Assembly: GCA_902464635.1 (NCBI GenBank) | Contig: CABQKC010000009.1 | Span: forward strand, 4,224 to 68,223 | Length of the DNA: 64,000 bases | Direction of reading: 5' to 3' | Origin: an uncultured Bacillales bacterium | GTDB lineage: Bacteria > Bacillota_I > Bacilli_A > RFN20 > CAG-826 | Shown here: positions 2,526 to 60,813 of the stretch, one piece after another | How positions within the stretch are numbered: the first letter of the stretch is position 1 | How the letters are laid out: each line of letters begins with the position of its first letter | Notes under the pieces: model-generated | What the model was told of the DNA's origin: nothing | The model's input: only the letters and a program-made list of their open reading frames with translations | Database searches by the model: none | Position numbers and translations under genes: made by a program

Positions 2526-5241
2526 GTTCTTCTAAAGCCTTTTTACATCTAGAGCAGACCTTAACGTCATTATAATCTTCTAAGGAATGGAAGTGCTTCC
2601 TGCAGCGAGGGCAAAGTTCGTCTTCGTCGATAAATACCTTGCAAGAATCTTTCTCTCCCTTTTCGAATTTGACATCACTTACAATGAAATAAGAAGCAAC
2701 GCATTCACTTGGCTCGCTCTTGAATAAGGAATATAGGAGGTCATCTTTTATTGTTATTTCAATTCTAGCGTCGCTAGAAGAACCTAGATGTCCATCTTTT
2801 CTTTCTTCTTCTAGGGCTTTTAATACTTCATCCCTAAGAGCATTGAAGGCGATAAATCCTTTTTGGACAGATTCATCATAGACGTGGCTAATCTTAGGCA
2901 TATCTTCTTCTTGGCAGCATTCCTTTTTCGAGCCAGTCCAATATGAATGGACTTCTTCCATCGTAAATGGAAGTATTGGATTTAATAATAAAGTCAAGGT
3001 TCTTAGACACTTATCTAAGACAAACTTTATGCTATCTTTTCTAGCAGAACTGCAGCAATCGCAATATAAAACATCTTTAGAAATATCTAGATAGAAGCTA
3101 GATAAAGTAGCGGACATGAAGTTGATGATTGGATTTAAAACAGAAGCAAAATCATAGCTTTCATAACTAGAAATAGCCTTGTTTTTCACTCTTTCTAATT
3201 CAGAAAGGACGAATTTATCAACCGTAGATAAATGTAATCCATTGGATTCGTTAGGAACATAATTATTTAGATTGCCCAACATGAATTTGAAGGTATTTCT
3301 AATCTTTCTATAATTATCCGTAACAGTCTTGATGATAGATTCTCCAATCCTGCAATCGGCCCTATAATCAACTGAAGCAGCCCATAATCTAAGAATATCG
3401 GCCCCATAAGTTGAGGCAATCTTATTAGGATCAACGCCATTCCCGGCAGATTTAGACATCTTTTGCCACTTTTCATCCATGACAAAGCCATGAGTCAAGC
3501 AAGTTGAAAATGGAGCAACATTAGAGAAAGCAGTAGATAATATCAAACTAGAATTGAACCAGCCCCTATATTGGTCATTTCCTTCTAGATACATATCGGC
3601 AGGATATTTAAGATTCCTATCGATTAAGGTTCCATTCCAGCTAGAGCCAGAATCAAACCAGACATCCATGATGTCGCTTTCTTTCTTGAAGTTGCCATTT
3701 GGAGACTTCTTGTTTTTATATCCTTCTGGCAATAATTCTTTCGCAGTCAAGGCAAACCAGGCCGAAGAACCTTTTTCTTTGATTATAGAGATGATATGTT
3801 CAAATACTTCTTCTTCGATAATTGGAGAGCCATCTTCATTATAGATTATCGGGATCGGTACGCCCCAAAGACGTTGCCTAGAGATACACCAATCACCCCT
3901 GTCCTTAATCATATTGACCATCTTTCCTTCACCCCAAGAAGGAACCCAGTTAATATTAGCTACTTCTTCAAGCAACTTCTCCCTAATTGGAGAAATGGAA
4001 CAGAACCATTGAGGGGTAGCCCTGAATATGACTGGCTTTTTAGTCCTCCAGTCATGAGGATAGCTGTGGATTATGTCTTCTTCTTTTAATAGAAGCCCAG
4101 ATTCAGCAAGCATATCCACTACTTTATTATTCGCGTCTTCATAGAATAATCCGGTTAATGGATCATCTTTTCCTAAATTCAAGACACCCTTTTCATCGAC
4201 TGGGCAAAATGGCTTGATGTTATATTTGGCGCAGGCATTGAAGTCGTCAACACCATGGTCAGGGGCTGTATGGACTAAACCAGTCCCGCTATCTTCGGTA
4301 ACGAAAGCGGCACAGATTATTGGAGAAACCCTATCTTTATATAAAGGATGTTCCAAAACTATTCCTTCTAGTTCGCCACCTTTGAAGGTCTTTAGCAAGC
4401 TAATCTTGCCTAATCCTAGTTCTTCTTTTAACTTTTCTTGCAAAGATACTAGGAATAATAAATTACCCTTATCAGTCTTAAATAACCCATATTCGAATTT
4501 AGGATTGACTGTGACGGCTTGGTCGGCGGGAATTGTCCAAGGAGTTGTAGTCCAAATGACGATATAATCGGTATTAGAAAGCTTATTTTTGCCATCTTTT
4601 ACCTTGAATTTGACATACATTGTCCTAGCTTTGACATCATGATATTCAATTTCAGCCTCAGCCAATGCAGATTCGCTTGATGGAGACCAATAGACTGGCT
4701 TTACACCTTTATAGATAAATCCTTTTAAAGCCATGGCAGCAAATACTTCAATTTGCTTGGCTTCATATTCAGGAAGAAGAGTTAAATATGGATGATCATA
4801 ATCACCTAGGCAACCTAGTCTCCTGATTTCTTCTTTTTGTCTAGCAACTTGCTTTAAGGCATATTCTTTGCACTTTTCCCTAAATTCAACAACGGGGGTA
4901 GCTTTTCTATCAACACCAGACTTAGTAACCATTACTTCAATAGGAAGGCCATGCGTATCCCAACCGAAAATAAATGGAGTCCTAAATCCAGCCATATTCT
5001 TATATCTAATGATAAAATCTTTTAAGCACCTATTAAGGGCATGACCGCAATGGATATCGCCATTTGCATAAGGAGGCCCATCATGAAGCATGAAAATAGG
5101 AGCATCGATTCTATTTTGATTCATCTTTTCATATAGATGGTCTTGCTTCCATTTATTAACTAGAATTGGTTCTTTTTCGCCTAAACCAGCCCTCATAGGG
5201 AAATTAGTTTCAGGCATTGATAGTGTTTCTTTTAATTCCAT
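2518..5241 (-). CDS. ileS: Isoleucine--tRNA ligase
   Basis: 907 aa; HIGH-type HCGHALN, KMSKS and a C-terminal Cys-rich zinc finger. Confidence 0.97.
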   Translation of the reverse strand: MELKETLSMPETNFPMRAGLGEKEPILVNKWKQDHLYEKMNQNRIDAPIFMLHDGPPYANGDIHCGHALNRCLKDFIIRYKNMAGFRTPFIFGWDTHGLPIEVMVTKSGVDRKATPVVEFREKCKEYALKQVARQKEEIRRLGCLGDYDHPYLTLLPEYEAKQIEVFAAMALKGFIYKGVKPVYWSPSSESALAEAEIEYHDVKARTMYVKFKVKDGKNKLSNTDYIVIWTTTPWTIPADQAVTVNPKFEYGLFKTDKGNLLFLVSLQEKLKEELGLGKISLLKTFKGGELEGIVLEHPLYKDRVSPIICAAFVTEDSGTGLVHTAPDHGVDDFNACAKYNIKPFCPVDEKGVLNLGKDDPLTGLFYEDANNKVVDMLAESGLLLKEEDIIHSYPHDWRTKKPVIFRATPQWFCSISPIREKLLEEVANINWVPSWGEGKMVNMIKDRGDWCISRQRLWGVPIPIIYNEDGSPIIEEEVFEHIISIIKEKGSSAWFALTAKELLPEGYKNKKSPNGNFKKESDIMDVWFDSGSSWNGTLIDRNLKYPADMYLEGNDQYRGWFNSSLILSTAFSNVAPFSTCLTHGFVMDEKWQKMSKSAGNGVDPNKIASTYGADILRLWAASVDYRADCRIGESIIKTVTDNYRKIRNTFKFMLGNLNNYVPNESNGLHLSTVDKFVLSELERVKNKAISSYESYDFASVLNPIINFMSATLSSFYLDISKDVLYCDCCSSARKDSIKFVLDKCLRTLTLLLNPILPFTMEEVHSYWTGSKKECCQEEDMPKISHVYDESVQKGFIAFNALRDEVLKALEEERKDGHLGSSSDARIEITIKDDLLYSLFKSEPSECVASYFIVSDVKFEKGEKDSCKVFIDEDELCPRCRKHFHSLEDYNDVKVCSRCKKALEEHE

Positions 5242-5251
5242 AAGTCCTCCA

Positions 5252-5495
5252 AGAAGAAATAAAAAGACGCCATATAAGGACGCCTTTAGCGCGGTACCAC
5301 CTTATTTCCTATATATATGATATAGGCGCTATTAATCTATTTAACGGATAGAAACGGAAAGCCTACATTATTCGACTTTCAGGCTCGGAAGTGATGTCTA
5401 GCGGCGTCCCCTTTCTCAACTTCGGCAGGGTTCTCTGTCTTTGCTTTTAGCGCGTCTTCGTCTTAGCCAAGGCAATTTTACACCACTAGGAAAGA
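5252..5495 (-). promoter_or_regulatory. T-box leader of ileS (Ile specifier)
   Basis: On the minus strand, AGGTGGTACCGCG is the T-box consensus (plus-strand 5290-5302). It is followed by a hairpin plus U-run immediately before the ileS SD. A candidate specifier AUC followed by A lies at plus-strand 5393-5395. A stem III-like hairpin CCTATAT/ATATAGG is present. Confidence 0.85.
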
Positions 5496-5542
5496 TAATT
5501 CACTACCCATTTATCAAACAAATTTAGATATTACTTTAACCT

Positions 5543-5575
5543 AAAAAGAAAACACTTGCCCTTTAAAGCAAATGT
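5543..5575 (-). terminator. Rho-independent terminator after ftsZ
   Basis: 8-bp stem (ACAUUUGC/GCAAGUGU, one G-U pair) followed by UUUCUUUUU on the minus strand. Confidence 0.6.
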
Positions 5576-5600
5576 TTAAAGATGGTTTTACTAAAATAGA

Positions 5601-6743
5601 CTAGTTATCGAATTTCCCGGAGAAGAAATTTGGAAGGAATTTATCTTTACTAGATTCTTCATCTTCCCCATTATTCTTTTCTTCTTCTCTTTCCTTTTTA
5701 ACTGCATTGGCCCTAGCTTCATCGACCCCGTTTCCGACGGTTTCCCTTTTTGGACGGGTAAATGTTGGGGCACTAGTAAAATCAAAGTCTTCGGTGAAAT
5801 CACTAGCAATGACGGAAACTAGAATTGTATCTTCTAATTGGTCGTTGATAGAAACACCGAACTTGATATCGACGGCATTCCCGGCTTGCTCAATGATGCG
5901 GTTAACGCATTCATTTGCTTCGTATAAAGTGACGTTGCTACCACAGGTAACTGATACAATAGCCCTTCTTGCCCCAGCAATAGAAGCCTCTAATAATGGG
6001 GAATTAATCGCATTTTCGGCAGCATCTTCAGCCTTATGGTCGCCACTACCCATGCCAAATCCAATAAGAGCGATTCCAGATCCTTTTAATGTTGATTTAA
6101 CATCGGCAAAATCTAGATTGATGACAGCAGGAAGCAATATCAAGTCGGTTACGGTCTTGACTGATTGGGCTAAGACTCTATCAGATTCAGAGAAGGCTTG
6201 GGAGATAGGTACTCCTCCAGAAGCCATCAACAATTTATCATTAGAGACAATGATAATTGAATCGACCGCATCTTTAAGCTCTCCTAGTCCAGAAACCGAA
6301 TTAGCAATACGTGTCTTGCCTTCGAAAGTAAATGGACGGGTAACAATAGCAATTGTAAGGGCGCCTTCTTCCTTGGCAATAGAGGCCACTACCGGAGCGG
6401 CTCCAGTTCCAGTCCCTCCACCCATACCGGCGGCAATAAAGACCATGTTAGCACCTTTTACGATGGCTCTAATTTCTTCGCTAGATTGTTCGGCGGCTGC
6501 TTTTCCAACGGCAGGATTTCCACCAGCCCCAAGTCCTTGGGTAACTTCTTCCCCAATTACGATTCTATTTGGAGCTTTTGAAGTTGCCAAAGCCTGCTTA
6601 TCGGTATTTAGAACATAGAAATCGACATTATCGATATGTTCATCCATCATCCTGTTGACGGCATTATTTCCAGCACCCCCAACACCGATGACTATAATAC
6701 GGGCCACTGGCTCAAAATTATCTAAATCCATTGTATCATTCAT
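5601..6743 (-). CDS. ftsZ: Cell division GTPase FtsZ
   Basis: GVGGAGNNAVNRM and GGGTGTGAAP tubulin signature; 380 aa. Confidence 0.97.
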   Translation of the reverse strand: MNDTMDLDNFEPVARIIVIGVGGAGNNAVNRMMDEHIDNVDFYVLNTDKQALATSKAPNRIVIGEEVTQGLGAGGNPAVGKAAAEQSSEEIRAIVKGANMVFIAAGMGGGTGTGAAPVVASIAKEEGALTIAIVTRPFTFEGKTRIANSVSGLGELKDAVDSIIIVSNDKLLMASGGVPISQAFSESDRVLAQSVKTVTDLILLPAVINLDFADVKSTLKGSGIALIGFGMGSGDHKAEDAAENAINSPLLEASIAGARRAIVSVTCGSNVTLYEANECVNRIIEQAGNAVDIKFGVSINDQLEDTILVSVIASDFTEDFDFTSAPTFTRPKRETVGNGVDEARANAVKKEREEEKNNGEDEESSKDKFLPNFFSGKFDN

Positions 6744-6755
6744 AACTTACCCTCT

Positions 6756-8003
6756 TTATAAGCTATCGTCATCATAGCTTTCCTTGCTTTTCCTTGCTTT
6801 TTCTTTCTTATTTACCCTAGAGACATCAGGCATGCCACGATGGTTGTCTTCTAAGGTTCCTTTATATTGGCTGACAATAAGTATCAATCCCAATAACGAG
6901 ACAAAATTAGGTTCCCTTGCCCCGATTGCATTCGGGCTATATCTAATAATTTCTTTGTTTTGATAATGGTTAGCAAAGAAAGATTCTAGCCCTGCTAATT
7001 TAGAGCCTCCACCGATTAGGATAATAGGAGCATTATCATAATGGCCATTATAGGCGCTTAATAAAGAAGCAATCGCATTATCCAAGGTAACAAAATAATC
7101 CTTCATGAATATTGAAATTAGTTCATTAAGGTCCTTTTGGTAATACTTGACCTTGCTATTTGAAGCATCGATTCCATTAATGAGTGGAAGAGAATAGCTC
7201 TTAGTCCTATTATCGTATCCATATCTATGCTTTAAGTTAATAGCCTCATCTTTGCTGATGCAGAATTCCTTTTGGATATATCTAGTCAAATCATCCCCTC
7301 CTATAAAGAAGGATGCATTTGAATAAGGAGAACCTTCCCCAACAAAGGAAACACTAGTGATGCTGCCACCTATATCGACCAAGATATAGGTCTTTGGCAT
7401 GTTTGCATTAGTAACAATAAGGCTAGATGCGCAGAAGCAGCTTGGTTCAGACTTAATAACCCTGTATCCTGACAAGTTGGCATTTTCTTTATAGAAAGTC
7501 ACCACTCCATTTGGAAGGGCATATATCTTAGCCTTCTCGGTAAGGGAAGAAGATATCTTTCCTAATGGGGGATTAGAATATCTTTCCCCGTTTTCTAAGA
7601 TAAATTCGTCTGGGATAGTATCAACGATTGTATAATTTTCCGGCAACGGCTCTTTTGTAATAAGAGAGGTAAGGTTAGATAAATCAATTCTATTGATCTC
7701 ATTATTTGAATCGACTACATTAGTAGTCTTTTCATTTTGGAATACTTTTAGCCCAGAAGAAGGAAGTACTAAATTAATATGAGAAATAGTGATGTCTAGT
7801 TTTTCCTCGTTATCGCGGATAGAATGAAAATCCGCCAAGGCACTATTAAGTACATCTTTATTTACCGATCTATCTTCATTTAATAGATTCGGTATCTTTT
7901 TTTCCTTTGTATATAAAACTATTGGGGCACCATTTAGGGCATATCCAATGAGTAATCTAATCGAAGAAGAAGTTATTTCTAAGAACGCTTGAGGTTTATC
8001 CAT
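6756..8003 (-). CDS. ftsA: Cell division protein FtsA (actin-like ATPase)
   Basis: Sits immediately upstream of ftsZ. Actin-fold blocks (DIGGSITSV, LIGGGSKLAGL); 415 aa. Confidence 0.88.
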   Translation of the reverse strand: MDKPQAFLEITSSSIRLLIGYALNGAPIVLYTKEKKIPNLLNEDRSVNKDVLNSALADFHSIRDNEEKLDITISHINLVLPSSGLKVFQNEKTTNVVDSNNEINRIDLSNLTSLITKEPLPENYTIVDTIPDEFILENGERYSNPPLGKISSSLTEKAKIYALPNGVVTFYKENANLSGYRVIKSEPSCFCASSLIVTNANMPKTYILVDIGGSITSVSFVGEGSPYSNASFFIGGDDLTRYIQKEFCISKDEAINLKHRYGYDNRTKSYSLPLINGIDASNSKVKYYQKDLNELISIFMKDYFVTLDNAIASLLSAYNGHYDNAPIILIGGGSKLAGLESFFANHYQNKEIIRYSPNAIGAREPNFVSLLGLILIVSQYKGTLEDNHRGMPDVSRVNKKEKARKSKESYDDDSL

Positions 8004-8092
8004 ATTTTTTACCTGATATATATTAATATATCTATTCAGTTAAAAAAAGATTAACCGATAAATTTTTAGTAGTTTTTCTTTACCTTTTTAGC

Positions 8093-8121
8093 AAAAAAAG
8101 AGCCGGTGAAGGGAAACCGGC
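8093..8121 (-). terminator. Hairpin plus U-run between the small ORF and ftsA
   Basis: GCCGGT/ACCGGC stem (8102-8107 / 8116-8121) followed on the minus strand by CTTTTTTT. Confidence 0.55.
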
Positions 8122-8140
8122 CCGAGTAGCAAGCTCTTAT

Positions 8141-8374
8141 TTATTTTTCTTCTTCTATATAGGAAGAAGTTAAGATTTCATCGGATTTATCTTCTTTGGT
8201 CTTTTCAACTTGGGTTGAATTTTCTTTGCCATTAACGGCATAGACGGTATAAGTAATCGCGATTGGGGCGCTAGAAACCACTAGTAAAGACAAAACGAAA
8301 ATCGATGTACGTAAAATAGTCCTGAACCTATAATAATTTTTCTTGTGTCCGGTTTTTACTAATTTGTCTTTCAT
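8141..8374 (-). CDS. Small bitopic membrane protein in the ftsL position of the mraZ-rsmH cluster
   Basis: 77 aa with a basic N-terminus, one TM segment (IFVLSLLVVSSAPIAITYTVYAV) and an acidic tail. A good SD (AAGGTGA) lies 6 nt upstream of the ATG. There is positional analogy only; no sequence motif was recognised. Confidence 0.6.
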   Translation of the reverse strand: MKDKLVKTGHKKNYYRFRTILRTSIFVLSLLVVSSAPIAITYTVYAVNGKENSTQVEKTKEDKSDEILTSSYIEEEK

Positions 8375-8393
8375 AATGATTCACCTTGCCTTT

Positions 8394-9332
8394 TTAATTT
8401 TCGATTCGTTTTATACCTCTTAATTTCGATGAGATTGAACGTCTATTTTCGTTTTCTTCTTCTATAGTTGGAATAATTGGTTTCTTAGTCAAATTAACAA
8501 ATTTTGGCTTTTCGATTTCATCTGGAAGCAAGTTTATTCCGTGCCTATTACCTTCAATGGTAGTTAATTTAGTAAATGCTTTCTTAACCAATCTATCATC
8601 AAGTGACATGAATGTTATGATTGCAAGAACCCCATTTACATTAAGTAATTCCGGGGCATCGATTAACATTTGCTTCAAGGCATCTTCTTCTTTGTTTACT
8701 TCGATTCGAATCGCCTGGAACGTTTGCTTTGCTGGGTGTCCTTTTTCTTTTAATGAGGACTTTCTTTTGCCAGCTTTAATCGCATCTACTAATTCAAATG
8801 TAGTCTTAATCGGAGATAATTCTCTTCTTTTTAATATGGAATAAACGATACCTTTGCTATCTTTGTCTTCTCCATATTCGAACAAAACTCTTTCTAGTTC
8901 CTCTTTTGAGTAGGAATTAACAACATCAAATGCAGTCAATTTAGATTCTTTGTTCATCCTCATATCTAGAGGTGCATCAAATCTATAGGAGAATCCCCTG
9001 CTCGCCTCATCTAATTGAGGGGAAGAGACACCTAAATCTGCAAATATTCCATCGACTTTATCTATCCCTAATTCATTTAGCTTTTCTTTTAGATTGATAA
9101 ATGAAGAATGGATAAAGGTAACTCTAGGGTCATCTTTGAATTTAGCTTTACCATAAGAAATGGCATCTAAATCCATATCGAAGGCGATTAATTTGCCTTG
9201 TTTACCAATTTTTTCCAAGATCAATGAGGAGTGGCCTCCTCTTCCAAATGTCAAGTCGACATAGGTCCCTCCATCTTTTATATCTAGGAGAGAAATAGAT
9301 TCATTAAGCAAGACGGGAATGTGATTATCCAT
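8394..9332 (-). CDS. rsmH: 16S rRNA (cytosine1402-N4)-methyltransferase RsmH
   Basis: HIPVLLNE start, DLTFGRGGHS SAM motif and DLGVSSPQLD block. Confidence 0.95.
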   Translation of the reverse strand: MDNHIPVLLNESISLLDIKDGGTYVDLTFGRGGHSSLILEKIGKQGKLIAFDMDLDAISYGKAKFKDDPRVTFIHSSFINLKEKLNELGIDKVDGIFADLGVSSPQLDEASRGFSYRFDAPLDMRMNKESKLTAFDVVNSYSKEELERVLFEYGEDKDSKGIVYSILKRRELSPIKTTFELVDAIKAGKRKSSLKEKGHPAKQTFQAIRIEVNKEEDALKQMLIDAPELLNVNGVLAIITFMSLDDRLVKKAFTKLTTIEGNRHGINLLPDEIEKPKFVNLTKKPIIPTIEEENENRRSISSKLRGIKRIEN

Positions 9333-30847: not shown

Positions 30848-31009
30848 GACAAAAAAATATCCTATATAAACAAAATCTAAAAATAAAATGTGATTAATTC
30901 GTTCTAGCGATAACAAGAATTGATAATTATTGCTTTTTATCAACCATTGTGTAAGCCCTTACAAAATTCCATAATTCACTTGTATTCATATATAAGTGAG
31001 GGATTTTGT

Positions 31010-34000
31010 ATGAAAAGAAGGAATATATTGCTTTTAGGTTTTTCTCTAGCAGGTTTATTTGGAATTGGGTTATCTTCATTAGGAAGTTTGGCTTCTAATA
31101 AACCATTGATAGGAATGAATGCCTCCGAACAGACTTATAAATTCCTATTTGATAAGTCTAGCAATAAACCAGTCATAGACGGGAACGGTTCGTTAAATGT
31201 CTTATCCTCATTAGGGAATTCATTTAAATTTGATTATTCTTCCTTCTTAGTTAGCGAAGGTAACTGGGGCAAATTAGCTGCTAACGGGACTTTATTAAAT
31301 CCTTACGCTTCTACTGCATATAACAATGCGATAGGAAATATTTCTTCTATAACAGTCGTATTCACTGGAGATTTAACTATTGATTATGGCTGGGGTGGCA
31401 AAGATGGAACAGTTAATTATTTAAGAACCAATCATAAATTAACTAGCGGAGTTGTTTTTGGTTTTGCTGCTGAAATGCCTAACTATGTAAGAATTAAAGC
31501 AACTTCTGAAACCACAATCACATCCATAACCCTCAATTATAGATGCGGAACCAATAACAATTTTAATGAAGCATTCCAAATCAAAGACATACAATCATTA
31601 AAGAACTTTGCGGCATTGGTAAAATCTGGCCAAACAAATCTAAACGCAAGATTAGTAAATGACATCGATTTTAAGGGTGCTACATTTGGAGGGATTGGAA
31701 CCAACACTAATCGATATAAAGGAACATTTGATGGAAACGGAAAAACAATCTCTAATATTAAAGTTGTAAATAAAGCTAAAGGAACTGGCTTATTTAATTA
31801 TGTTGAAGGCGCCACCGTCTCTAACCTAACCATTAAAAATGTAACGGTTAATTCATCAACTTCATATTATGATTGCACTGGAGCATTAATCGGATGCGCT
31901 TATGGAGTGAATTTAAATAATATCAATATCTCATCAGGAACTATTTATGGAAAAATAAACACTGGTTCCATTGTTGGAGCTACATATAAATCAACAGGCA
32001 AAGCCACCATTAATAACGTTCAAAATTCAGCTTCTATAATAGCGACGGGAGGTCTTGGTACCGGGGGATTAATAGGCACAAGTGACACGGGAGTACTAGT
32101 CGATATTTCAAATTCCATTAATTATGGAAGCGTTACTAGTGACAATGAATATGTTGGCGGAATAATAGGTTTACTAAGAACCGGAACAAGTACAGTCAAA
32201 TCTTCAGTTAAGGATTGTATCAATTATGGTGAAGTAAAAGGTACGAAAAATGTCGGTGGCATCGCTGGCGGCAATAGAGGTAGTATCACTAATTGTAAAG
32301 TCAGTTCAACTGCAACAATTAATGATAAAGCACCATCTTCTGTTAAGAATATCAGTGGTACTGGTGGCTATATACTTGGAGCAAACGATACCAAGAATGG
32401 TGCGATTACTAATGATGAAATTGCAAAATATAATTATTCGCCTATTTGGGACCCAACCACCACTAAAACAGCATTTGTCGGAGGCGGAACTCAAACAGAT
32501 CCTTATAAAATTGAATATGCAGAAGATCTAAATTACCTAGCAAACGAAGTTAATAAAGGTACCGATTTAGCAAAGAAATACTTCAGTTTAGTAACAAATA
32601 TCGATCTAGGTAGCTCAAATTGGACAACAATCGGTATATACAAAACTGCCACTACTTGTCCATTTAAGGGTTATTTCGATGGTAAAAACCTAAAAGTAGA
32701 TGGGCTAAAAATTGCAAAAGACTCCGAGGTTACAGGTTTGTTCGGTTATGTAGTCGATGCAAAAATATCTAATATTAATTTGATAAACGCTGATGTTACT
32801 TGCAACAAAGGCATTCAAGAATCTTTCGCAGGTGTCTTAGCAGGTAAGGTTGTAAGAACCACTGCATCAAATGTAACTGCTAATGGAACAATAGTTTCAA
32901 AAGGTGGAACTGTTGGCGGAATAATTGGTGGAGCATTTGGCGGAGGAACTTCTTCTATTTCAAACTGTGAAAGCAATGTAACGGTAACTTCTTCAATGGA
33001 TTATGCTGGCGGAATAATCGGCGGCAACAAAGAAGCCTCAAATCAAATCGTCAATATAACCAATTGTATTAACAAAGGGAATATAAGTAGCAGAGAATAT
33101 GCTGGCGGAATAACTGGCATTTTAAGAAGAGAAAAAAGCACAGCCACCAAATCAGTTATTGATGGGTGCACCAATTACGGAAACATTAAAGTTGATGGAT
33201 CTATAAATAGTAAAGGAGAATCAACTACTTTATGTGCATCTGGCATCGCGGGTTTGAATAGAGGAATAGTGAAAAACGCAAAGATATACGAAGACTGCAC
33301 TTTAACTGCTGGAAAAACATCTAAGTTTGCAAAAGAATGTGAACCATCAGCCGTTAATAAAAACATTCCGTCTTCAGTATGCTGTAATGACACAAATCCA
33401 GCCTTTTTAGGTGAAATCAATGGCTATTCATTAATCAAAGAAGATGGGACTTCTTTTGCTATTTTTAATGCCAAGATGACTACTGGATATGGCAGAATTA
33501 TCAAATTGTCTGATGGTTCCTATTTTTCAACTGTCGATGTTACAAAATTCTCTGGAAAAACATTATCCTCACTAGAAAATGGACAAACAATAGAAAATGA
33601 TTTTAAAGATAAACCTAGAGACAAAAACGGAAATGAAATCGAAAAATCTAAAACCACGATAAAAATGGCTAATGCACAACCTGTTGAATATGCAAAAGGA
33701 AAAATTGCAGTATTCTATAGGTTTAACGATCCTTATTTTAATAACGGGGTAGGCAAATATTCTTCTATTAGAGCAAGAATTTCTACTGATAATGGAAAGA
33801 CTTTCGGAGAACCACAAATTTTACTAGAAAATATTACAAAAACCGCAAATACAACTGAAAGCGAAGGTCTATACGAACCATTTCCCGTGCTTAAAGATGA
33901 TGGAAATATAGAATTATTTATTTCTTGCGATATTACTTCTACAGTAAATGGAAATGACTCATTAGTTGCTACAGGCGGAAAGCAAAATATTATTCGTATG

Positions 34001-34630
34001 CCAATAAGCGTTTCCAATGATACTTTCACCGTAGGAAAGACGACAATCATTAATAATTTAAAAGGTACTAGAGATTATGCCCGCCCAGGTATGACTACAA
34101 TCTCAAAACTAAATGACGGCAGTTATATAATGGCGATGGAACGCACTAACAATTTAGATCCAAATACTACCAAGATTGGATTTACAATCTGCATTTCCTA
34201 TTCAAAAGACTTAATTAATTGGACTTTGCCAAAAGAAATTATTAGGCCAAAAACTACAAACTCAGTAGTAACTGAAAACTATCTTTGCCAATCCCCTTGC
34301 ATTGGAGTCTTAGATAATGGAAAGATTGCAGTTAGCTATATGAGTAATGAGAATTTCCAAGGCGATAACTACATAAATGGAAATTCGTTTTTTAGAAGAT
34401 GCGAAGTTGCTATTTCAGAAAAAGAAGTTAAATATAGTGATTCTCCAACAATGATTAAACAAGATAATTCGTTTGGTTATGCAAATAATATTGGTTGCCA
34501 ATATCCAGGATTATACGTTGAAGGAAACACTGCTTACACAATAGAAAGAACATATACAATCGCTGTTAACGATAGTGGCAACGTTTCACTATCTAACAAG
34601 AAAACAGTTATCAAGCCATTTGCAGCCTAA
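31010..34630 (+). CDS. Large secreted/surface protein: two GLUG-motif modules plus C-terminal BNR/sialidase-like propeller
   Basis: Signal/anchor MKRRNILLLGFSLAGLFGIGLSSLGSLAS. Repeated F-GxFDG-N and GGIIG/GGIAG motifs. Asp-box STDNGKTF (33782-33805) and an Asp-box-like SYSKDLINWT (34196-34225). The track's TTG 30920 start is replaced by ATG 31010, which follows the GTGAGGGA SD. Confidence 0.8.
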   Translation: MKRRNILLLGFSLAGLFGIGLSSLGSLASNKPLIGMNASEQTYKFLFDKSSNKPVIDGNGSLNVLSSLGNSFKFDYSSFLVSEGNWGKLAANGTLLNPYASTAYNNAIGNISSITVVFTGDLTIDYGWGGKDGTVNYLRTNHKLTSGVVFGFAAEMPNYVRIKATSETTITSITLNYRCGTNNNFNEAFQIKDIQSLKNFAALVKSGQTNLNARLVNDIDFKGATFGGIGTNTNRYKGTFDGNGKTISNIKVVNKAKGTGLFNYVEGATVSNLTIKNVTVNSSTSYYDCTGALIGCAYGVNLNNINISSGTIYGKINTGSIVGATYKSTGKATINNVQNSASIIATGGLGTGGLIGTSDTGVLVDISNSINYGSVTSDNEYVGGIIGLLRTGTSTVKSSVKDCINYGEVKGTKNVGGIAGGNRGSITNCKVSSTATINDKAPSSVKNISGTGGYILGANDTKNGAITNDEIAKYNYSPIWDPTTTKTAFVGGGTQTDPYKIEYAEDLNYLANEVNKGTDLAKKYFSLVTNIDLGSSNWTTIGIYKTATTCPFKGYFDGKNLKVDGLKIAKDSEVTGLFGYVVDAKISNINLINADVTCNKGIQESFAGVLAGKVVRTTASNVTANGTIVSKGGTVGGIIGGAFGGGTSSISNCESNVTVTSSMDYAGGIIGGNKEASNQIVNITNCINKGNISSREYAGGITGILRREKSTATKSVIDGCTNYGNIKVDGSINSKGESTTLCASGIAGLNRGIVKNAKIYEDCTLTAGKTSKFAKECEPSAVNKNIPSSVCCNDTNPAFLGEINGYSLIKEDGTSFAIFNAKMTTGYGRIIKLSDGSYFSTVDVTKFSGKTLSSLENGQTIENDFKDKPRDKNGNEIEKSKTTIKMANAQPVEYAKGKIAVFYRFNDPYFNNGVGKYSSIRARISTDNGKTFGEPQILLENITKTANTTESEGLYEPFPVLKDDGNIELFISCDITSTVNGNDSLVATGGKQNIIRMPISVSNDTFTVGKTTIINNLKGTRDYARPGMTTISKLNDGSYIMAMERTNNLDPNTTKIGFTICISYSKDLINWTLPKEIIRPKTTNSVVTENYLCQSPCIGVLDNGKIAVSYMSNENFQGDNYINGNSFFRRCEVAISEKEVKYSDSPTMIKQDNSFGYANNIGCQYPGLYVEGNTAYTIERTYTIAVNDSGNVSLSNKKTVIKPFAA

Positions 34631-35024: not shown

Positions 35025-35087
35025 ACCTTGATTATAGATTAATTAGAGTTAAGGCAAAAGGATAGTTTCTTTGAATTTATACACTTT

Positions 35088-35873
35088 CTACTTATTGACC
35101 AAATTAAATTGAAGAAATGAAGATGCTATCTTATATCTAAGCAAAATAAATATGAAGGTATTCAAAACCAATAAACTGCTTTTAGAATTAACCAAATTCT
35201 TTTCTTCCAAATATATATTTAATTGATCCAGCTCTTCTCCATCAAAAAAAGTTTCATTTAATAATCTGCAATGACGTTTTTGATTATAAACAAGTGTAAG
35301 AGGAATATAACAAGGAGGAAGCGTCTTAAATATTTTTTTATTTCGGCTGTTCCTAAATAATGTTCTTTCGTTTACTTCTTTTTTATATGTCTTGCTCCTT
35401 ATATTTTCAATTGAAACAAAACGTATTCTGTTAAAGTCAATAATATCTTCCTTTGAAATATCAAAAAGAGATTCGAACATAGGATAATTTACAAATAGTA
35501 ATCCATTCCTGGTTTCATCATCGAATGTATTTAACGCCTTTTCAAGCAAGGTTTCGTTATAATCAGGTGATTGGGGGTCAAAATCAAATATCAAATAAAT
35601 GGAAGAAAACACCTCATTCGGTCTATATCCATCTTCAATCAGCAAATTGCCATAAATATCTTGAACTTTTTTATACTTTAAATACGAAGGAAAACTATCT
35701 ATTTCAGAATGAAAAAAGTCTTTTATCAGCGAATGAAAAGTAGTTCCGTAGATTGATATAGAAAAATCATCACCCTCTGCCAAACCAAGAATGTCGTGGA
35801 ACATATGTTCAACATTTTTTCTTTCGGTATCTGCCCCTTCGACAACGAAGAGAATTCTTTTATTCAAATTCAT
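35088..35873 (-). CDS. RloB/AbiLii-like Toprim-type protein (candidate nuclease partner)
   Basis: ILFVVEGADTE (aa 7-17), IYLIFDFD (aa 92-99) and VNYPMFESLF (aa 128-137) match the EGxxTE / DxD / S-N-P-x-F-E blocks I recall for RloB-family proteins. The start overlaps the ATPase gene by 14 nt. Confidence 0.65.
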   Translation of the reverse strand: MNLNKRILFVVEGADTERKNVEHMFHDILGLAEGDDFSISIYGTTFHSLIKDFFHSEIDSFPSYLKYKKVQDIYGNLLIEDGYRPNEVFSSIYLIFDFDPQSPDYNETLLEKALNTFDDETRNGLLFVNYPMFESLFDISKEDIIDFNRIRFVSIENIRSKTYKKEVNERTLFRNSRNKKIFKTLPPCYIPLTLVYNQKRHCRLLNETFFDGEELDQLNIYLEEKNLVNSKSSLLVLNTFIFILLRYKIASSFLQFNLVNK

Positions 35874-36960
35874 TTGATAGAAGCATATTTTCCAAACTAT
35901 TAGCTTCTCTAATAATCTTCTTCGATTTATTCGAGAAAGAATCTATTTTCCCATCATTTAAAATAAAATAACAGTCAGGTCTCATAATAGAATTATCCGC
36001 TAAAAATGGATTATGGGTTGTTAAAACTGATTGGAAATTGCTTTTGGAATTAATGAAATTTAGAATCTTCTTCGATAGTTTGTAATGATAAAAGGAATCA
36101 AATTCATCTAAATAAAGGAATTTTAGATTCTTCTCACACTTTTTTATCCAATAGTAAAACAATGTCAAAGAGCCAGTCCCGGTGGATATAGAAGAAAAGA
36201 ATTCAATCTTTTCGTTATTATAATCAATCAATATTACTGGATTGCCAAAAGTATCGATACCTGCGAGCAGTTTATAACTTAAGCCACAATCGGAAAGGAA
36301 TTTTTGGAAATCATCTATAAGTCCATTATTTACAATGAAAGAAGCGATATTTTCCCCGTTTTCTAATTTTCCCATGAATTCATTTTCCCTAACAGAGCGG
36401 AACCACAACATGTTTTCGGCAAAAGAAACTATGTATTCGATTGGATGATCCTTTTTCAAATCAGAGTTGTTTCTCATGAATTTCAAGGCAGATAATCTCC
36501 CCTGCCTATTCTTGAATACTATGTTTTGAGTCTCAACAAAATTATTAATCAATTTATCGTTAGAATAATTGAATTGAAACATGGTTTTTCCATTTACTTT
36601 TACTTCTTCAAAAAGAAGTTCCATACTCGCATTCTTTGAGTAGTTATATTCGACTTCATCGCCATTTTCCATTAAAAAGAGATATGAAAATTTAGCTTCA
36701 GTAGAAATATTATCCCCATTTAGATAATGCAGATAATGATCCATTCTTTTGGTCTTGTCAGTTAAATGGTTATTGATATCCATCATGGCAAAACCTAAAT
36801 TAGATTTCCCAGAACCGTTATATCCATAAATCAAAGCTTTGTTCACTAAATTGTTTTTAATCAAACCTTTGTTAAATGAATAGTCATTTGTCTTTGAAAA
36901 ATCAAAAACGCAAGTGTCATAGAAATTCTTAAAATTATTGACAGAGAATCTTTTTAACAT
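35860..36960 (-). CDS. ABC-type (AAA_15/AAA_21-like) ATPase, candidate defense ATPase
   Basis: FSVNNFKNF N-terminus, Walker A GYNGSGKS (nt 36802-36825), SISTGTGSL signature-like block, Walker B FLYLDEFD, TTHNP H-loop and a GGAGG SD. Confidence 0.85.
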   Translation of the reverse strand: MLKRFSVNNFKNFYDTCVFDFSKTNDYSFNKGLIKNNLVNKALIYGYNGSGKSNLGFAMMDINNHLTDKTKRMDHYLHYLNGDNISTEAKFSYLFLMENGDEVEYNYSKNASMELLFEEVKVNGKTMFQFNYSNDKLINNFVETQNIVFKNRQGRLSALKFMRNNSDLKKDHPIEYIVSFAENMLWFRSVRENEFMGKLENGENIASFIVNNGLIDDFQKFLSDCGLSYKLLAGIDTFGNPVILIDYNNEKIEFFSSISTGTGSLTLFYYWIKKCEKNLKFLYLDEFDSFYHYKLSKKILNFINSKSNFQSVLTTHNPFLADNSIMRPDCYFILNDGKIDSFSNKSKKIIREANSLENMLLSNEFE

Positions 36961-36976
36961 AACTACCTCCAGTTAA

Positions 36977-37005
36977 ATTATAAGCGTTAATTATCCTAAT
37001 GTAAA
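36977..37005 (-). promoter_or_regulatory. Strong sigma-70-type promoter of the ATPase/RloB-like cassette
   Basis: On the minus strand, TTTACA (37005-37000), a 17-nt spacer, then TATAAT (36982-36977), followed by the GGAGG SD. Confidence 0.6.
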
Positions 37006-37050
37006 TCTTTTGCACCTTTAATGTAATTTTTTTACATCAATATTTATATA

Positions 37051-37077
37051 TAAAGAAAACCCTACACGAGGTAGGGT
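37051..37077 (-). terminator. Terminator of the glgB-glgP-dut operon
   Basis: ACCCTAC/GTAGGGT 7-bp stem (37059-37065 / 37071-37077), then TTTCTTT on the minus strand. Confidence 0.7.
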
Positions 37078-37079
37078 AA

Positions 37080-37580
37080 TCAATATGAATTATGTTGTCT
37101 TTGATGATTTGTATCTAGCTTCTTTTTATAAGCGTTAATAACATCAAAAGAAGAATAATCAAACAAAGGAATGATATCAAGGAAGGCTGCGAATGCCTTG
37201 CAATATGAATCGGCATCGAAGTTATTTACTAACTTACATACTAACTCATATACATTAAGAATGGCATCGCTACAATCTTTTATCTTTACGTTGAAGCGAT
37301 GTGTATACCTACTTACTCCAAGCTCTACTCCTAAAGAGAGGAAGAAATGGAGGGCGTCTGCATATTCATCTAGGATTACTTCTTTTGGGGAAGGGCCCTT
37401 ATTTGACCAATATTTGAAACATCTTGTCTCATTTGCAAATTCCCCTAGTTCTACTAAAAGGGCAAGACATCTCCTATTGTGGGTTGAAGGATAATCAATA
37501 TGGTGAATTGAAGCGATTTCCTTATCTAGATCTTCTTGAAGAGGGAATAATTCATCAAGAGTAATCTTGTCATCACTCAT
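37080..37580 (-). CDS. Dimeric (all-alpha, dUTPase_2/MazG-like) dUTP diphosphatase
   Basis: LALLVELGEFANE, DEYADALHFFLS and C-terminal INAYKKKLDTNHQRQ blocks resemble the dimeric Dut proteins of Firmicute phages and chromosomes, as I recall them. The ATGA start/stop overlaps glgP. Confidence 0.7.
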   Translation of the reverse strand: MSDDKITLDELFPLQEDLDKEIASIHHIDYPSTHNRRCLALLVELGEFANETRCFKYWSNKGPSPKEVILDEYADALHFFLSLGVELGVSRYTHRFNVKIKDCSDAILNVYELVCKLVNNFDADSYCKAFAAFLDIIPLFDYSSFDVINAYKKKLDTNHQRQHNSY

Positions 37581-59278: not shown

Positions 59279-60322
59279 TCAAAAATTTAATAGAGTTTCT
59301 TTTACTTCATCTTGATCTAATGTTGCAAAGTTAAATTCAATAACGTTCCCAACTGATTCAATTTCTATAGATGTCCGATAATAAGAGGCATATTTTGATA
59401 ATATCTTCTTGAATTCTACATAAGGAATACTATAGCCATATTCAGATGTAGCAGTCGAAGAACTATCTAATTCAGGAATAGAATAATCTTTTTTCTTACA
59501 ATAAAAAGCCGCGTCATATAGGAAATTTTCATCATTTACATTCCCAATAATTTGATAATTATAATTATAGAAATGCCCATTAAATTTAGGTAAATTCTCT
59601 TCTTTGCTGAAATCTATTTTAGAAACATAAATATCTTCTCTAGAACTAGAGCTTCCTCTTTCAATGACTTTATCCCCATCATAATAAGAATAAATATAAG
59701 AGAAGTATGTCCCACTTAGATTTATTTCTTTATCGGATAATAAATCTTCTTCTATTGTAAATTTAGACTCCCCATATAGCCCTACTAGTTCAAGTCCATT
59801 TTTGATAAATGGGATAGATTCTTTTTTGCTAAATTCAAAAGTCCTTATGTATTTAATGTAATCTAAAGCGGAATAATAATAAGTTATACCGTTAAAAGCA
59901 GATGAATTTAATAAACTAGATATTTCGCACCTATTTTCAGCTTCTCTTGCTTTATCTTTAGGTAAGTATAATCCAACTTTTTTCCCTTCATCATCAATAT
60001 CATAACTACGTTTTATTCGATAAAATGAATTCATTTCATCTTCAAGTTCCCTTTTAAAATCTGGATAAGGAACCGCGCATTGGCTACTGCTAGTAATGTT
60101 AGAAAGAATGGAATTGTAATAAGGGGACTTAGTCACATCATATTGATTAAGCAAGATGCAAGTAGGAATAATTATTAAAGCTAAAGCAGCCGGGACTAAT
60201 ATTGATAAACATATTTTCCATTTGTTGCTTTTAACTTTTTTGTCGATTTTTATTGCTTCGATTTCAGGAAGCTCGCTTTCTAATTTAGAAAGAAATTGTT
60301 TCTTGATTTGCCTCTTATTCAT
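59279..60322 (-). CDS. Single-pass membrane protein, anti-sigma-like by position
   Basis: About 35 aa of cytoplasmic N-terminus, one TM segment (ICLSILVPAALALIIIPTCILL) and about 290 aa outside. Overlaps the sigma gene by 4 nt. No zinc anti-sigma motif. Confidence 0.5.
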   Translation of the reverse strand: MNKRQIKKQFLSKLESELPEIEAIKIDKKVKSNKWKICLSILVPAALALIIIPTCILLNQYDVTKSPYYNSILSNITSSSQCAVPYPDFKRELEDEMNSFYRIKRSYDIDDEGKKVGLYLPKDKAREAENRCEISSLLNSSAFNGITYYYSALDYIKYIRTFEFSKKESIPFIKNGLELVGLYGESKFTIEEDLLSDKEINLSGTYFSYIYSYYDGDKVIERGSSSSREDIYVSKIDFSKEENLPKFNGHFYNYNYQIIGNVNDENFLYDAAFYCKKKDYSIPELDSSSTATSEYGYSIPYVEFKKILSKYASYYRTSIEIESVGNVIEFNFATLDQDEVKETLLNF

Positions 60323-60813
60323 TTTAATGCACCTCTAGTTTTCTTTATGGCGCGAGCATATCTAATCTTTAACGTAATTACAGGAACTTGCGTCAATTCC
60401 GAAATTTCCTTGAAGGAAAATCCAAAACAAAGCCTATAACCAATTACAACTCTTTCATCATGAGTTAAGTCGAAAGAAAGCAGTTCTTCCAATCTAGTAT
60501 GGTCTTTTTCTCCAACTAGATTTTCATCAAGAAGTTCATTGCTGCTTCTATTCTTGGCTTTTGCATAATTAATCGCCTTGTTCTTCGCACTTATGCAAAG
60601 ATAAGAATGAAGCTTAGAAGGGTCTTTGATTTGATTTCTATTCTCTAATACAGAAACGAATAAATCTTGATAGACATCCTCGCAATCTTCCTTGCTATTA
60701 ACATAGGTAGAAATAATGAAATATAGCAAACTACGGTATTTTAGATATACCTCGTTAGTTGCTTTTTCATCTCCTTGGATAAATTTTGTTGCCGTTAATT
60801 TAGATACGTTCAT
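60319..60813 (-). CDS. Sigma-70 family (ECF-like, regions 2 and 4) RNA polymerase sigma factor
   Basis: 164 aa with a region 2-like EDCEDVYQDLFVSVL...LHSYLCISAKNKAINY and a region 4 HTH FSFKEISELTQVPVITLKIRYARAIKK. Confidence 0.8.
   Translation of the reverse strand: MNVSKLTATKFIQGDEKATNEVYLKYRSLLYFIISTYVNSKEDCEDVYQDLFVSVLENRNQIKDPSKLHSYLCISAKNKAINYAKAKNRSSNELLDENLVGEKDHTRLEELLSFDLTHDERVVIGYRLCFGFSFKEISELTQVPVITLKIRYARAIKKTRGALK

Follow-up and report, generated by a model that had tools for sequence, protein, structure and literature searches.

A two-gene ABC ATPase and Toprim-like cassette of an uncultured Bacilli lineage belongs, by sequence, to the candidate defense family PDC-M12

The window, a stretch of 64,000 nucleotides (nt) from contig CABQKC010000009.1 of an uncultured Bacillales bacterium, contains a compact cassette of two overlapping genes, designated A and B, whose neighbors are glgP, a type-2 dUTPase gene (dut) and a gene for a CBS-pair protein. 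The host is a member of the 'Candidatus Enteromonas' or RF39-type lineage of uncultured Bacilli. The locus raises the question of whether an ABC ATPase gene paired with a gene for a Toprim-like partner represents a new kind of anti-phage system, a diverged form of a validated one or a family that has already been recorded. The preliminary description of this DNA favored a candidate anti-phage module, AbiL-like or split-OLD-like and possibly a new subtype. The comparisons reported here place the cassette, by sequence, in an already catalogued candidate family, PDC-M12, and not in a new kind of system. The mobile two-gene module probably acts in abortive infection, with a sensor ATPase and an effector nuclease. 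The two genes are:

35860..36960, minus strand: gene A (PDC-M12A), 366 amino acids (aa), ABC ATPase of the SMC/Rad50/RecF type
35088..35873, minus strand: gene B (PDC-M12B), 261 aa, predicted Toprim-like N-terminal region of ~140 aa followed by a helical C-terminal domain specific to the family

The assignment to PDC-M12 rests on profile matches that extend over both proteins. Protein A matched PDC-M12A (PDLC04426) with an E-value (E) of 8.2e-110 and 366 bits, residues 1-365 being aligned to positions 1-367 of the 369 in the profile, and B matched PDC-M12B (PDLC04430) with E 4.3e-30 and 103 bits (residues 3-253 on positions 6-243 of 251). B also matched four further M12B models, and all five models were matched by each of the 112 B relatives. 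The genes are adjacent, lie on the same strand and overlap by 14 nt, and the gene order, the sizes (about 369 and 250 aa) and the overlap are all alike in the PDC-M12 reference and the window pair. The suggestion of a new subtype was consequently not upheld: both proteins are full-length matches to an existing family, and the compact size is the family norm because the PDC-M12 models are 369 and about 250 aa long. The window copy represents a divergent Bacilli/RF39 branch, in which B scored 103 bits, the copies on proteobacterial plasmids and phages reaching 265-397 bits.

The idea of a candidate anti-phage module was borne out by these matches, PDC-M12 being a candidate family. The PDC families are 145 untested "guilt-by-embedding" candidates, and PDC-M12, listed in PADLOC-DB v2 as cassette CAS_00072 (FAM_01143>>FAM_01648, count 272), was defined from genes that lie within BREX, DISARM or type I restriction-modification (RM) loci (Payne et al. 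2024, bioRxiv 10.1101/2024.01.29.577857). No paper text was found to contain the name PDC-M12, which occurs in a supplementary table alone. PDC-M12 was also not among the candidates of a later study, in which other PDCs and HEC-01 were tested.

Protein A is an ABC ATPase of the SMC/Rad50/RecF class with intact motifs, as had been proposed. All of the motifs in the preliminary description, like the coordinates of both open reading frames (ORFs), were located where it had placed them: FSVNNFKNF at aa 5-13, the Walker A sequence GYNGSGKS at aa 46-53 (nt 36802-36825), SISTGTGSL at aa 257-265, FLYLDEFD at aa 281-288 and TTHNP at aa 314-318. The key residues are K52 of Walker A, S259-T-G-T262 of the signature, D285-E286 of Walker B, D288 of the D-loop and H316 of the H-loop, and the residues of these five motifs were invariant in 73 homologues. 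Pfam returned AAA_21 (1.3e-17) and SMC_N (3e-9) for A, while a comparison of A with PDB sequences gave no match. In the AlphaFold2 (AF2) model, which was compact (pLDDT 93, pTM 0.91), the five motifs are predicted to lie in order on an ABC head fold. A Foldseek search with this model retrieved PtuA, SMC heads, Rad50 and RecF with E between 1e-12 and 1e-9, the probability for the SMC, Rad50 and RecF heads being 1.00, and the first match among solved structures was PtuA of the retron/Septu complexes (9kk2_E, E 4e-12, TM 0.51). Since the longest helix in the model was 19 residues, A has no coiled coil, in agreement with the earlier remark that a long coiled-coil insert was missing. The nearest relative of A other than itself was 60% identical. 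The first ~360 positions of a PHROGs family of 1,071 positions, phrog_5836, matched A (E 2.6e-20), a family that may represent the A-type ATPase in a long or fused version.

The motifs of B are ILFVVEGADTE (aa 7-17), IYLIFDFD (aa 92-99), VNYPMFESLF (aa 128-137) and LLVLNTFIFILL (aa 234-245). Its conserved residues comprise E12-G13, D97-x-D99-P100, N129-Y-P-M-x-E134 and, in the C-terminal domain, K164, Q224 and N238-T239, and E12, D97, D99, P100, N129, Y130 and E134 were invariant or at least 90% conserved across 112 B homologues. Conservation at this level in the 112 B and 73 A homologues indicates that the motifs of the two proteins are not due to chance. In the AF2 model of B (pLDDT 90, pTM 0.88), E12 follows strand 1 (residues 5-11), D97-x-D99 ends strand 3 (residues 91-97) and the NYPM-E block comes after strand 4. 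The acidic residues are thus predicted to sit at the strand ends of a beta-alpha-beta-alpha-beta-alpha-beta unit, which is the Toprim layout; the modeled four-stranded alpha/beta unit has the Glu after strand 1 and the DxD after strand 3. B, whose motifs have a Toprim-type layout, is best described as a putative, remotely RloB/AbiLii-like protein.

The last ~120 aa of B, including the hydrophobic LLVLNTFIFILL, had been described as unrecognizable, a statement that had to be revised. The B sequence alone retrieved nine homologues; with a profile, the numbers were 324 proteins in a word-indexed database and, when the search was exhaustive, 1,463 representative clusters. Almost all of the matches listed were 235-265 aa long and aligned end to end, so that the C-terminal half of B is a conserved part of the family. 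The LLVLNTFIFILL segment holds a conserved VLNT motif and is modeled as a strand and a short helix in a well-folded core. A membrane anchor was considered for this segment and rejected, the strand-helix element being part of a conserved and confidently predicted core. The nearest relative of B other than itself was 40% identical.

A mechanism that would be compatible with such a pair begins with translational coupling, by which A and B would be made in a fixed ratio, and with an oligomer of A that would keep B inactive. A phage-derived cue would be sensed by A, and ATP binding or hydrolysis would then free or activate B. B would act as a metal-dependent Toprim nuclease that cuts nucleic acid, and this cleavage would halt the growth of the phage, with the infected cell being lost in the process. 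The target of B may be tRNA, purely by analogy with PARIS AriB, P2 OLD and Septu/retron PtuAB, and the analogy is imperfect in that A has no coiled coil of the kind with which AriA binds Ocr. Several reports (PMC11464382, PMC12409363, PMC12673091, PMC13096335, bioRxiv 10.64898/2026.07.10.737580) describe related ATPase and nuclease systems as sensor-sequestered effectors that cut tRNA.

Several observations weigh against this interpretation, 1) B had no match in Pfam or NCBIfam, 2) the B model matched no PDB structure at E ≤ 0.001 in Foldseek, the best E being 0.024, 3) the best Pfam RloB scores among the B relatives, 27.5-28.3 bits, are below the gathering score of 31.5, 4) the hhalign probability for the B profile against P2 Old was 1.5%, 5) A lacks the coiled coil of AriA, the PARIS ATPase, so that a PARIS-like mode of triggering is not simply transferable, 6) no recognizable defense island surrounds the pair in the window or in most of the chromosomal contexts examined, 7) no experiment on PDC-M12 was found in the literature and 8) HEC-01, the nearest candidate consisting of an ATPase and a TOPRIM protein, gave no protection in the study of Payne et al. 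HEC-01 was protective in another study.

The first two of these points, together with the negative hhalign comparison with the OLD Toprim, would also be expected if B were not a nuclease and the ABC ATPase acted with a different kind of partner, for example in a RecF/RecR-like DNA transaction or in the maintenance of a mobile genetic element, the Toprim resemblance being coincidental. RecF, which is among the structural neighbors of A, has the Toprim protein RecR as its partner. Neither a phmmer search with B nor the 112-sequence profile found anything relevant among PDB sequences, and Toprim-bearing PDB entries appeared in the Foldseek list for B only at ranks 13-20 (topoisomerase II at rank 13, E 0.09; OLD, 6njv, at rank 20, E 0.15). 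Moreover, the window B had no match to Pfam RloB (PF13707) at E ≤ 1. However, the invariant acidic residues are located exactly at the Toprim catalytic positions, and the remote matches of the B relatives are colinear. Pfam RloB was reached at E ≤ 0.01 by 32 of the 112 relatives, all below the gathering score, and PADLOC AbiLii by 56 (best 1.8e-7), with two reaching an OLD-like TOPRIM model and three HEC-01B. The outstanding structural match of B is also RloB-like, a phage "RloB-like protein" that was the best Foldseek match in BFVD (E 1.4e-3, probability 1.0, TM 0.41/0.48). In addition, the patchy distribution on mobile elements and the absence from the nearest relative of the window argue against a housekeeping repair function. 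A non-nuclease B was accordingly judged quite unlikely. The independent support for a Toprim/RloB relationship of B is real but weak. The earlier identification of B as RloB/AbiLii Toprim-like was thus supported by the motif layout and by the remote matches of the relatives; B itself has no Pfam RloB or Toprim match.

The cassette is a horizontal insertion between dut and the CBS gene, as the preliminary description had supposed. Eighty reference genomes were fetched through glgP, the nearest being uncultured Bacilli, Enteromonas and "Mollicutes" metagenome-assembled genomes (MAGs). In the closest reference (L010, whose glgP is 85% identical), just 13 nt separate the dut stop from the CBS start and nothing lies in between; neither A nor B was found in the reference loci L006-L085 within a flank of up to 10 kb, some contigs ending sooner. 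The empty site in L010 implies that the window lineage gained a segment of 2,055 nt with a terminator, a promoter, a Shine-Dalgarno sequence, A and B. Same-species contigs, with proteins 98-100% identical, have the cassette at the same site, and the species yielded no allele that lacks it, all contigs that encode an identical B or CBS protein being carriers. On a short 2.3-kb contig (L103), a partial upstream ORF is consistent with a putative B. The NCBI copies from "Candidatus Enteromonas sp." MAGs are named "AAA family ATPase" and "hypothetical protein". Around the insert, neither a target-site duplication nor terminal inverted repeats could be convincingly identified. A pair that is 48% identical is present at a different locus of a second Enteromonas genome, where it adjoins an IS3 transposase. 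Between the window and a diverged strain, dN/dS was 0.02 for A and 0.08 for B at a dS of 0.55-0.72, values that indicate that both genes are maintained by purifying selection. Positive selection on B was rejected on the basis of its dN/dS of 0.08.

The cassette was correctly recognized as low in GC. Its GC content of 29.6%, as compared with 35.4% for the window, is in the lowest 0.1% of same-size windows, and that of the whole inserted segment (35025..37079) is 29.3% versus the window mean of 35.4%. The figures given earlier, 22-25% against 32-50% in flanking genes, were overstated, the 60-nt lines of the cassette ranging from 22 to 38%. GC at third codon positions (GC3) was 0.32 for A and 0.26 for B, not below the 0.29 of dut or the 0.26 of CBS. 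Since GC3 is host-like, the dip mostly reflects amino-acid composition, and GC was downgraded as evidence of transfer. The only other patch of the window that is equally low in GC, 59279..60813 on the minus strand, encodes an extracytoplasmic function (ECF)-type sigma factor of 164 aa and an upstream-overlapping ORF of 347 aa without a Pfam or PADLOC match; the latter is possibly its anti-sigma factor, and the patch is unrelated to the cassette.

A second variable gene is present in the dut-fba interval. It lies at 30920..34630 on the plus strand and encodes a surface-type protein of 1,236 aa with only a faint Peptidase_M26_N match. The gene is missing from L010, where CBS is followed directly by fba, and the protein is 68% identical between the window and the strain L005, as against 95-98% for the neighboring genes.

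Pairing of A and B is obligate wherever it could be tested. An overlapping B was found with 59 of 62 A homologues, which are all of the testable loci (59 of 59 overlap in reading frame); of the three others, two lie at contig ends, and in one the A is frameshifted but B still comes after it. The annotated overlaps in L086, L094, L098, L099, L100 and L151 are 8-11 nt. In an IMG/VR contig (L147, 5901..7957), A is split into two frames by a frameshift or a sequencing error, and the downstream B is intact.

The pair is also found on a variety of mobile elements, and the copies there were confirmed as PDC-M12 by PADLOC (E 1e-64 to 1e-176). It is nearly the sole cargo of Rop-type Escherichia plasmids of 4.0-4.4 kb. 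In E. coli it occurs in 9 of 5,426 complete genomes, all as plasmid copies, with no chromosomal or RM-embedded copy in this set. One E. coli plasmid with the A-B pair is pEcFELIX705.3 (NZ_CP101918.1). It is an accessory of 10-kb Vibrio filamentous phages, one record of which annotates the A homologue as 'Paris_II__AAA_21', and the variable locus of these phages is reported to be enriched for defense genes (PMC11630473). On an Acinetobacter plasmid the pair lies among RelE/helix-turn-helix (HTH) and HicAB modules. Forty-six IMG/VR contigs carry it, and PHROGs contains full-length families for both A and B. Chromosomal copies are usually solitary among housekeeping genes.

Some features of the individual loci were also recorded. 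A gene for an AAA_14/DUF4143 ATPase adjoins the pair in two unrelated genomes (L098, 10381..11706; L151, 9360..10574; L152, 5394..6632), and L151 has, in addition, a DEAD/ResIII helicase gene and an IS3-type transposase near the pair. In one gut lineage that is very common (B protein P0158, listed for 344 blocks of the collection; L086-L093, about 3000..8711), the pair comes after a block made up of an HTH repressor, genes of unknown function and a GH25 lysozyme. The flank upstream of this block differs between contigs and the rplK operon downstream is constant, which suggests that the pair is carried by a small island, either mobile or the remnant of a prophage.

Such a distribution could also be produced by a toxin-antitoxin (TA)-like addiction module that mainly stabilizes mobile elements, with B as the toxin, A as the antitoxin or keeper, and phage protection secondary or absent. 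The ~4-kb plasmids with almost no other cargo, the adjoining RelE/HTH and HicAB modules of the Acinetobacter plasmid and a SocA_Panacea/MqsA-type gene 5 kb from the pair in L098 are in line with this explanation, as are the overlapping genes and tight stoichiometry, which are TA-like. For PARIS itself, behavior as a TA pair has been described (PMC10802264, PMC13064643). However, the window copy is chromosomal, lies among housekeeping genes and is under purifying selection, a setting in which addiction has no obvious role, and the defense-enriched locus of the filamentous phages and the reported embedding in RM, BREX or DISARM loci are more typical of defense. TA behavior and defense are, moreover, not mutually exclusive. 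Stabilization as the main function was considered a minority possibility, and abortive infection by a sensor ATPase and an effector nuclease remained the preferred interpretation.

The inserted segment carries its own expression signals, which are, together with the spacer and overlap:

35025..37079, minus strand: whole inserted segment, from the dut stop codon to the CBS start codon, 2,055 nt
37059..37077, minus strand: intrinsic terminator directly after dut, with a 7-bp stem, 4 G-C pairs and a T-run (terminator scan)
36997..37036, minus strand: pair of imperfectly palindromic direct repeats of 18 nt that overlap and precede the -35 box
36977..37005, minus strand: sigma-70-type promoter TTTACA-17-TATAAT, matching at 11 of 12 positions
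36966..36970, minus strand: GGAGG, the Shine-Dalgarno sequence of A, 5 nt ahead of its ATG
35860..35873, minus strand: A/B overlap of 14 nt, the end of A over the start of B, ATGAATTTGAATAA
35025..35087, minus strand: B-CBS spacer of 63 nt, unusually conserved

The promoter and GGAGG sequence that had been reported after the dut terminator were thus recovered, and among 17 promoter-like sites in 3.2 kb this promoter ranked first. In L005 the -35 box is conserved and the -10 box is TATACT, and the GGAGG of A is invariant in L001 and L005. As had also been noted, B starts 14 nt before the A stop and the sequence has no GGAGG-type Shine-Dalgarno sequence before B, and the overlap probably couples the translation of the two genes. 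On the minus strand the 18-nt repeats read TGTAAAAAAATTACA and TGCAAAAGATTTACA. The 47-nt stretch that holds them has a single mismatch between the window and L005, in which the flanking genes have a dS of 0.3-0.7, and they are possibly an operator or an UP-like element. An exact 14-nt direct repeat, TTATAAGCGTTAAT, occurs in the cassette -10 region (36978..36991) and inside the 3' end of dut (37126..37139), and could be due to chance or be a trace of the origin of the insert.

The B-CBS spacer has 2 mismatches in 63 nt relative to L005, for which the flanking genes have a dS of 0.5-0.7 and ~64% identity would be expected from a calculation at a dS of ~0.5. Both this spacer and the repeats upstream of the promoter are therefore far more conserved than neutral sites. 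The spacer contains TTGCCT-15-TATAAT, and the terminator scan found no terminator in its 63 nt. The dut terminator is itself within the inserted segment, the empty site in L010 having no such spacer. As the cassette brought a terminator into the dut-CBS interval and none follows B, the signals that now drive the CBS gene are probably cassette-borne, acting either by read-through or as a CBS promoter.

The case for a module is a strong one, resting on the obligate pairing, the purifying selection on both genes and the clean empty-site comparison. PDC-M12 is a much larger and more mobile family than would be gathered from its RefSeq-based description, extending to uncultured gut Bacilli, ~4-kb plasmids, filamentous phages and IMG/VR contigs. 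In annotation by DefenseFinder-based tools, the ATPase alone receives a label, that of an orphan PARIS AAA_21, and B escapes Pfam altogether. The natural ~4-kb E. coli plasmid copy offers an easy entry to a first experimental test, which would inform how ABC ATPases that lack coiled coils control Toprim effectors. PDC-M12 might even be a mechanistically distinct and major unrecognized defense of gut Firmicutes/RF39, with a new trigger or target. The ATPase without a coiled-coil sensor, with PtuA as its nearest match, and an effector that would combine an RloB-like Toprim core with a C-terminal domain having no detectable counterpart among solved structures are in keeping with this proposal, which is nevertheless doubtful.

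Comparison with the validated systems bears on the last alternative, that the pair is a too-divergent member of one of them, namely AbiL of Lactococcus, PARIS or a split OLD. AbiL of Lactococcus lactis, a validated abortive-infection system (PMC13064643), resembles the cassette in consisting of two genes, for an ABC ATPase and a predicted Toprim/OLD-like protein, and has remote profile similarity to both. A matched AbiLi (PDLC02335) with E 1.1e-30 and a second AbiLi model with 1e-6, and half of the B family reaches AbiLii. The match of the window B to AbiLii (1.3e-3) is short, however, extending over no more than positions 29-62 of the 170 in the profile. According to a review, AbiLi has about 453 aa and an extension at residues 250-323 (PMC13064643), whereas A has 366 aa and no long helical insert. 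RloA/RloB, found in Campylobacter type I RM loci, likewise consists of an ATPase and an RloB-type partner. The B relatives are colinear with positions 1-150 of the RloB profile, the C-terminal ~100 aa of B are outside the match and no B relative attained the RloB (PF13707) gathering score.

PARIS follows a similar logic, in which an ABC ATPase that is both sensor and keeper is combined with a separate Toprim nuclease effector, the pair being TA-like and often on mobile elements. A matched AriA, a generic AAA_21-type model of 304 positions, with E 2e-17, and the 'Paris_II__AAA_21' label of the Vibrio phage homologue points in the same direction. B and its 112 relatives, on the other hand, had no match to AriB (PADLOC) or DUF4435 (Pfam) at the thresholds used. 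AriA is 53-55 kDa and AriB 35 kDa, as compared with about 43 kDa for A and about 31 kDa for B, and AriA has coiled-coil legs that bind the trigger, which are missing from A. AriA senses Ocr through its coiled-coil (PMC10802264), and AbiL and RloAB are regarded as structurally distinct from PARIS (Deep et al.).

In Septu and the retrons, PtuA and PtuB also form a pair of sensor ATPase and nuclease, for which tRNA cleavage is reported, and PtuA is the closest solved structure to A. However, PtuA is 100-170 aa longer than A, its PADLOC models matched A weakly (1e-4 to 3e-5), and PtuB is an HNH nuclease, unlike B, which had no HNH match in Pfam or PADLOC.

OLD, Gabija GajA, HEC-01 and HEC-04 resemble the cassette in using an ABC ATPase along with a Toprim nuclease in defense. 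In OLD, GajA and HEC-04 the two belong to a single fused chain, and Gabija has a UvrD-like helicase in addition, whereas the cassette has two separate genes and no helicase gene, and the matches to the GajA (3.4e-4) and HEC-01A/B models were marginal. A split OLD was rejected at the sequence level, the hhalign probability against P2 Old being 30% for the A profile, over Walker B and the H-loop only, in addition to the 1.5% for B. Of the labels first given to the pair, split-OLD-like was not upheld, and AbiLi, AbiLii and RloB are only remote relatives, A being related to AbiLi without having it as its best family. A hidden member of a validated system was considered very unlikely, since PDC-M12 matches both proteins over their full length and with far higher scores than AbiL (366 versus 105 bits for A and 103 versus 17 bits for B).

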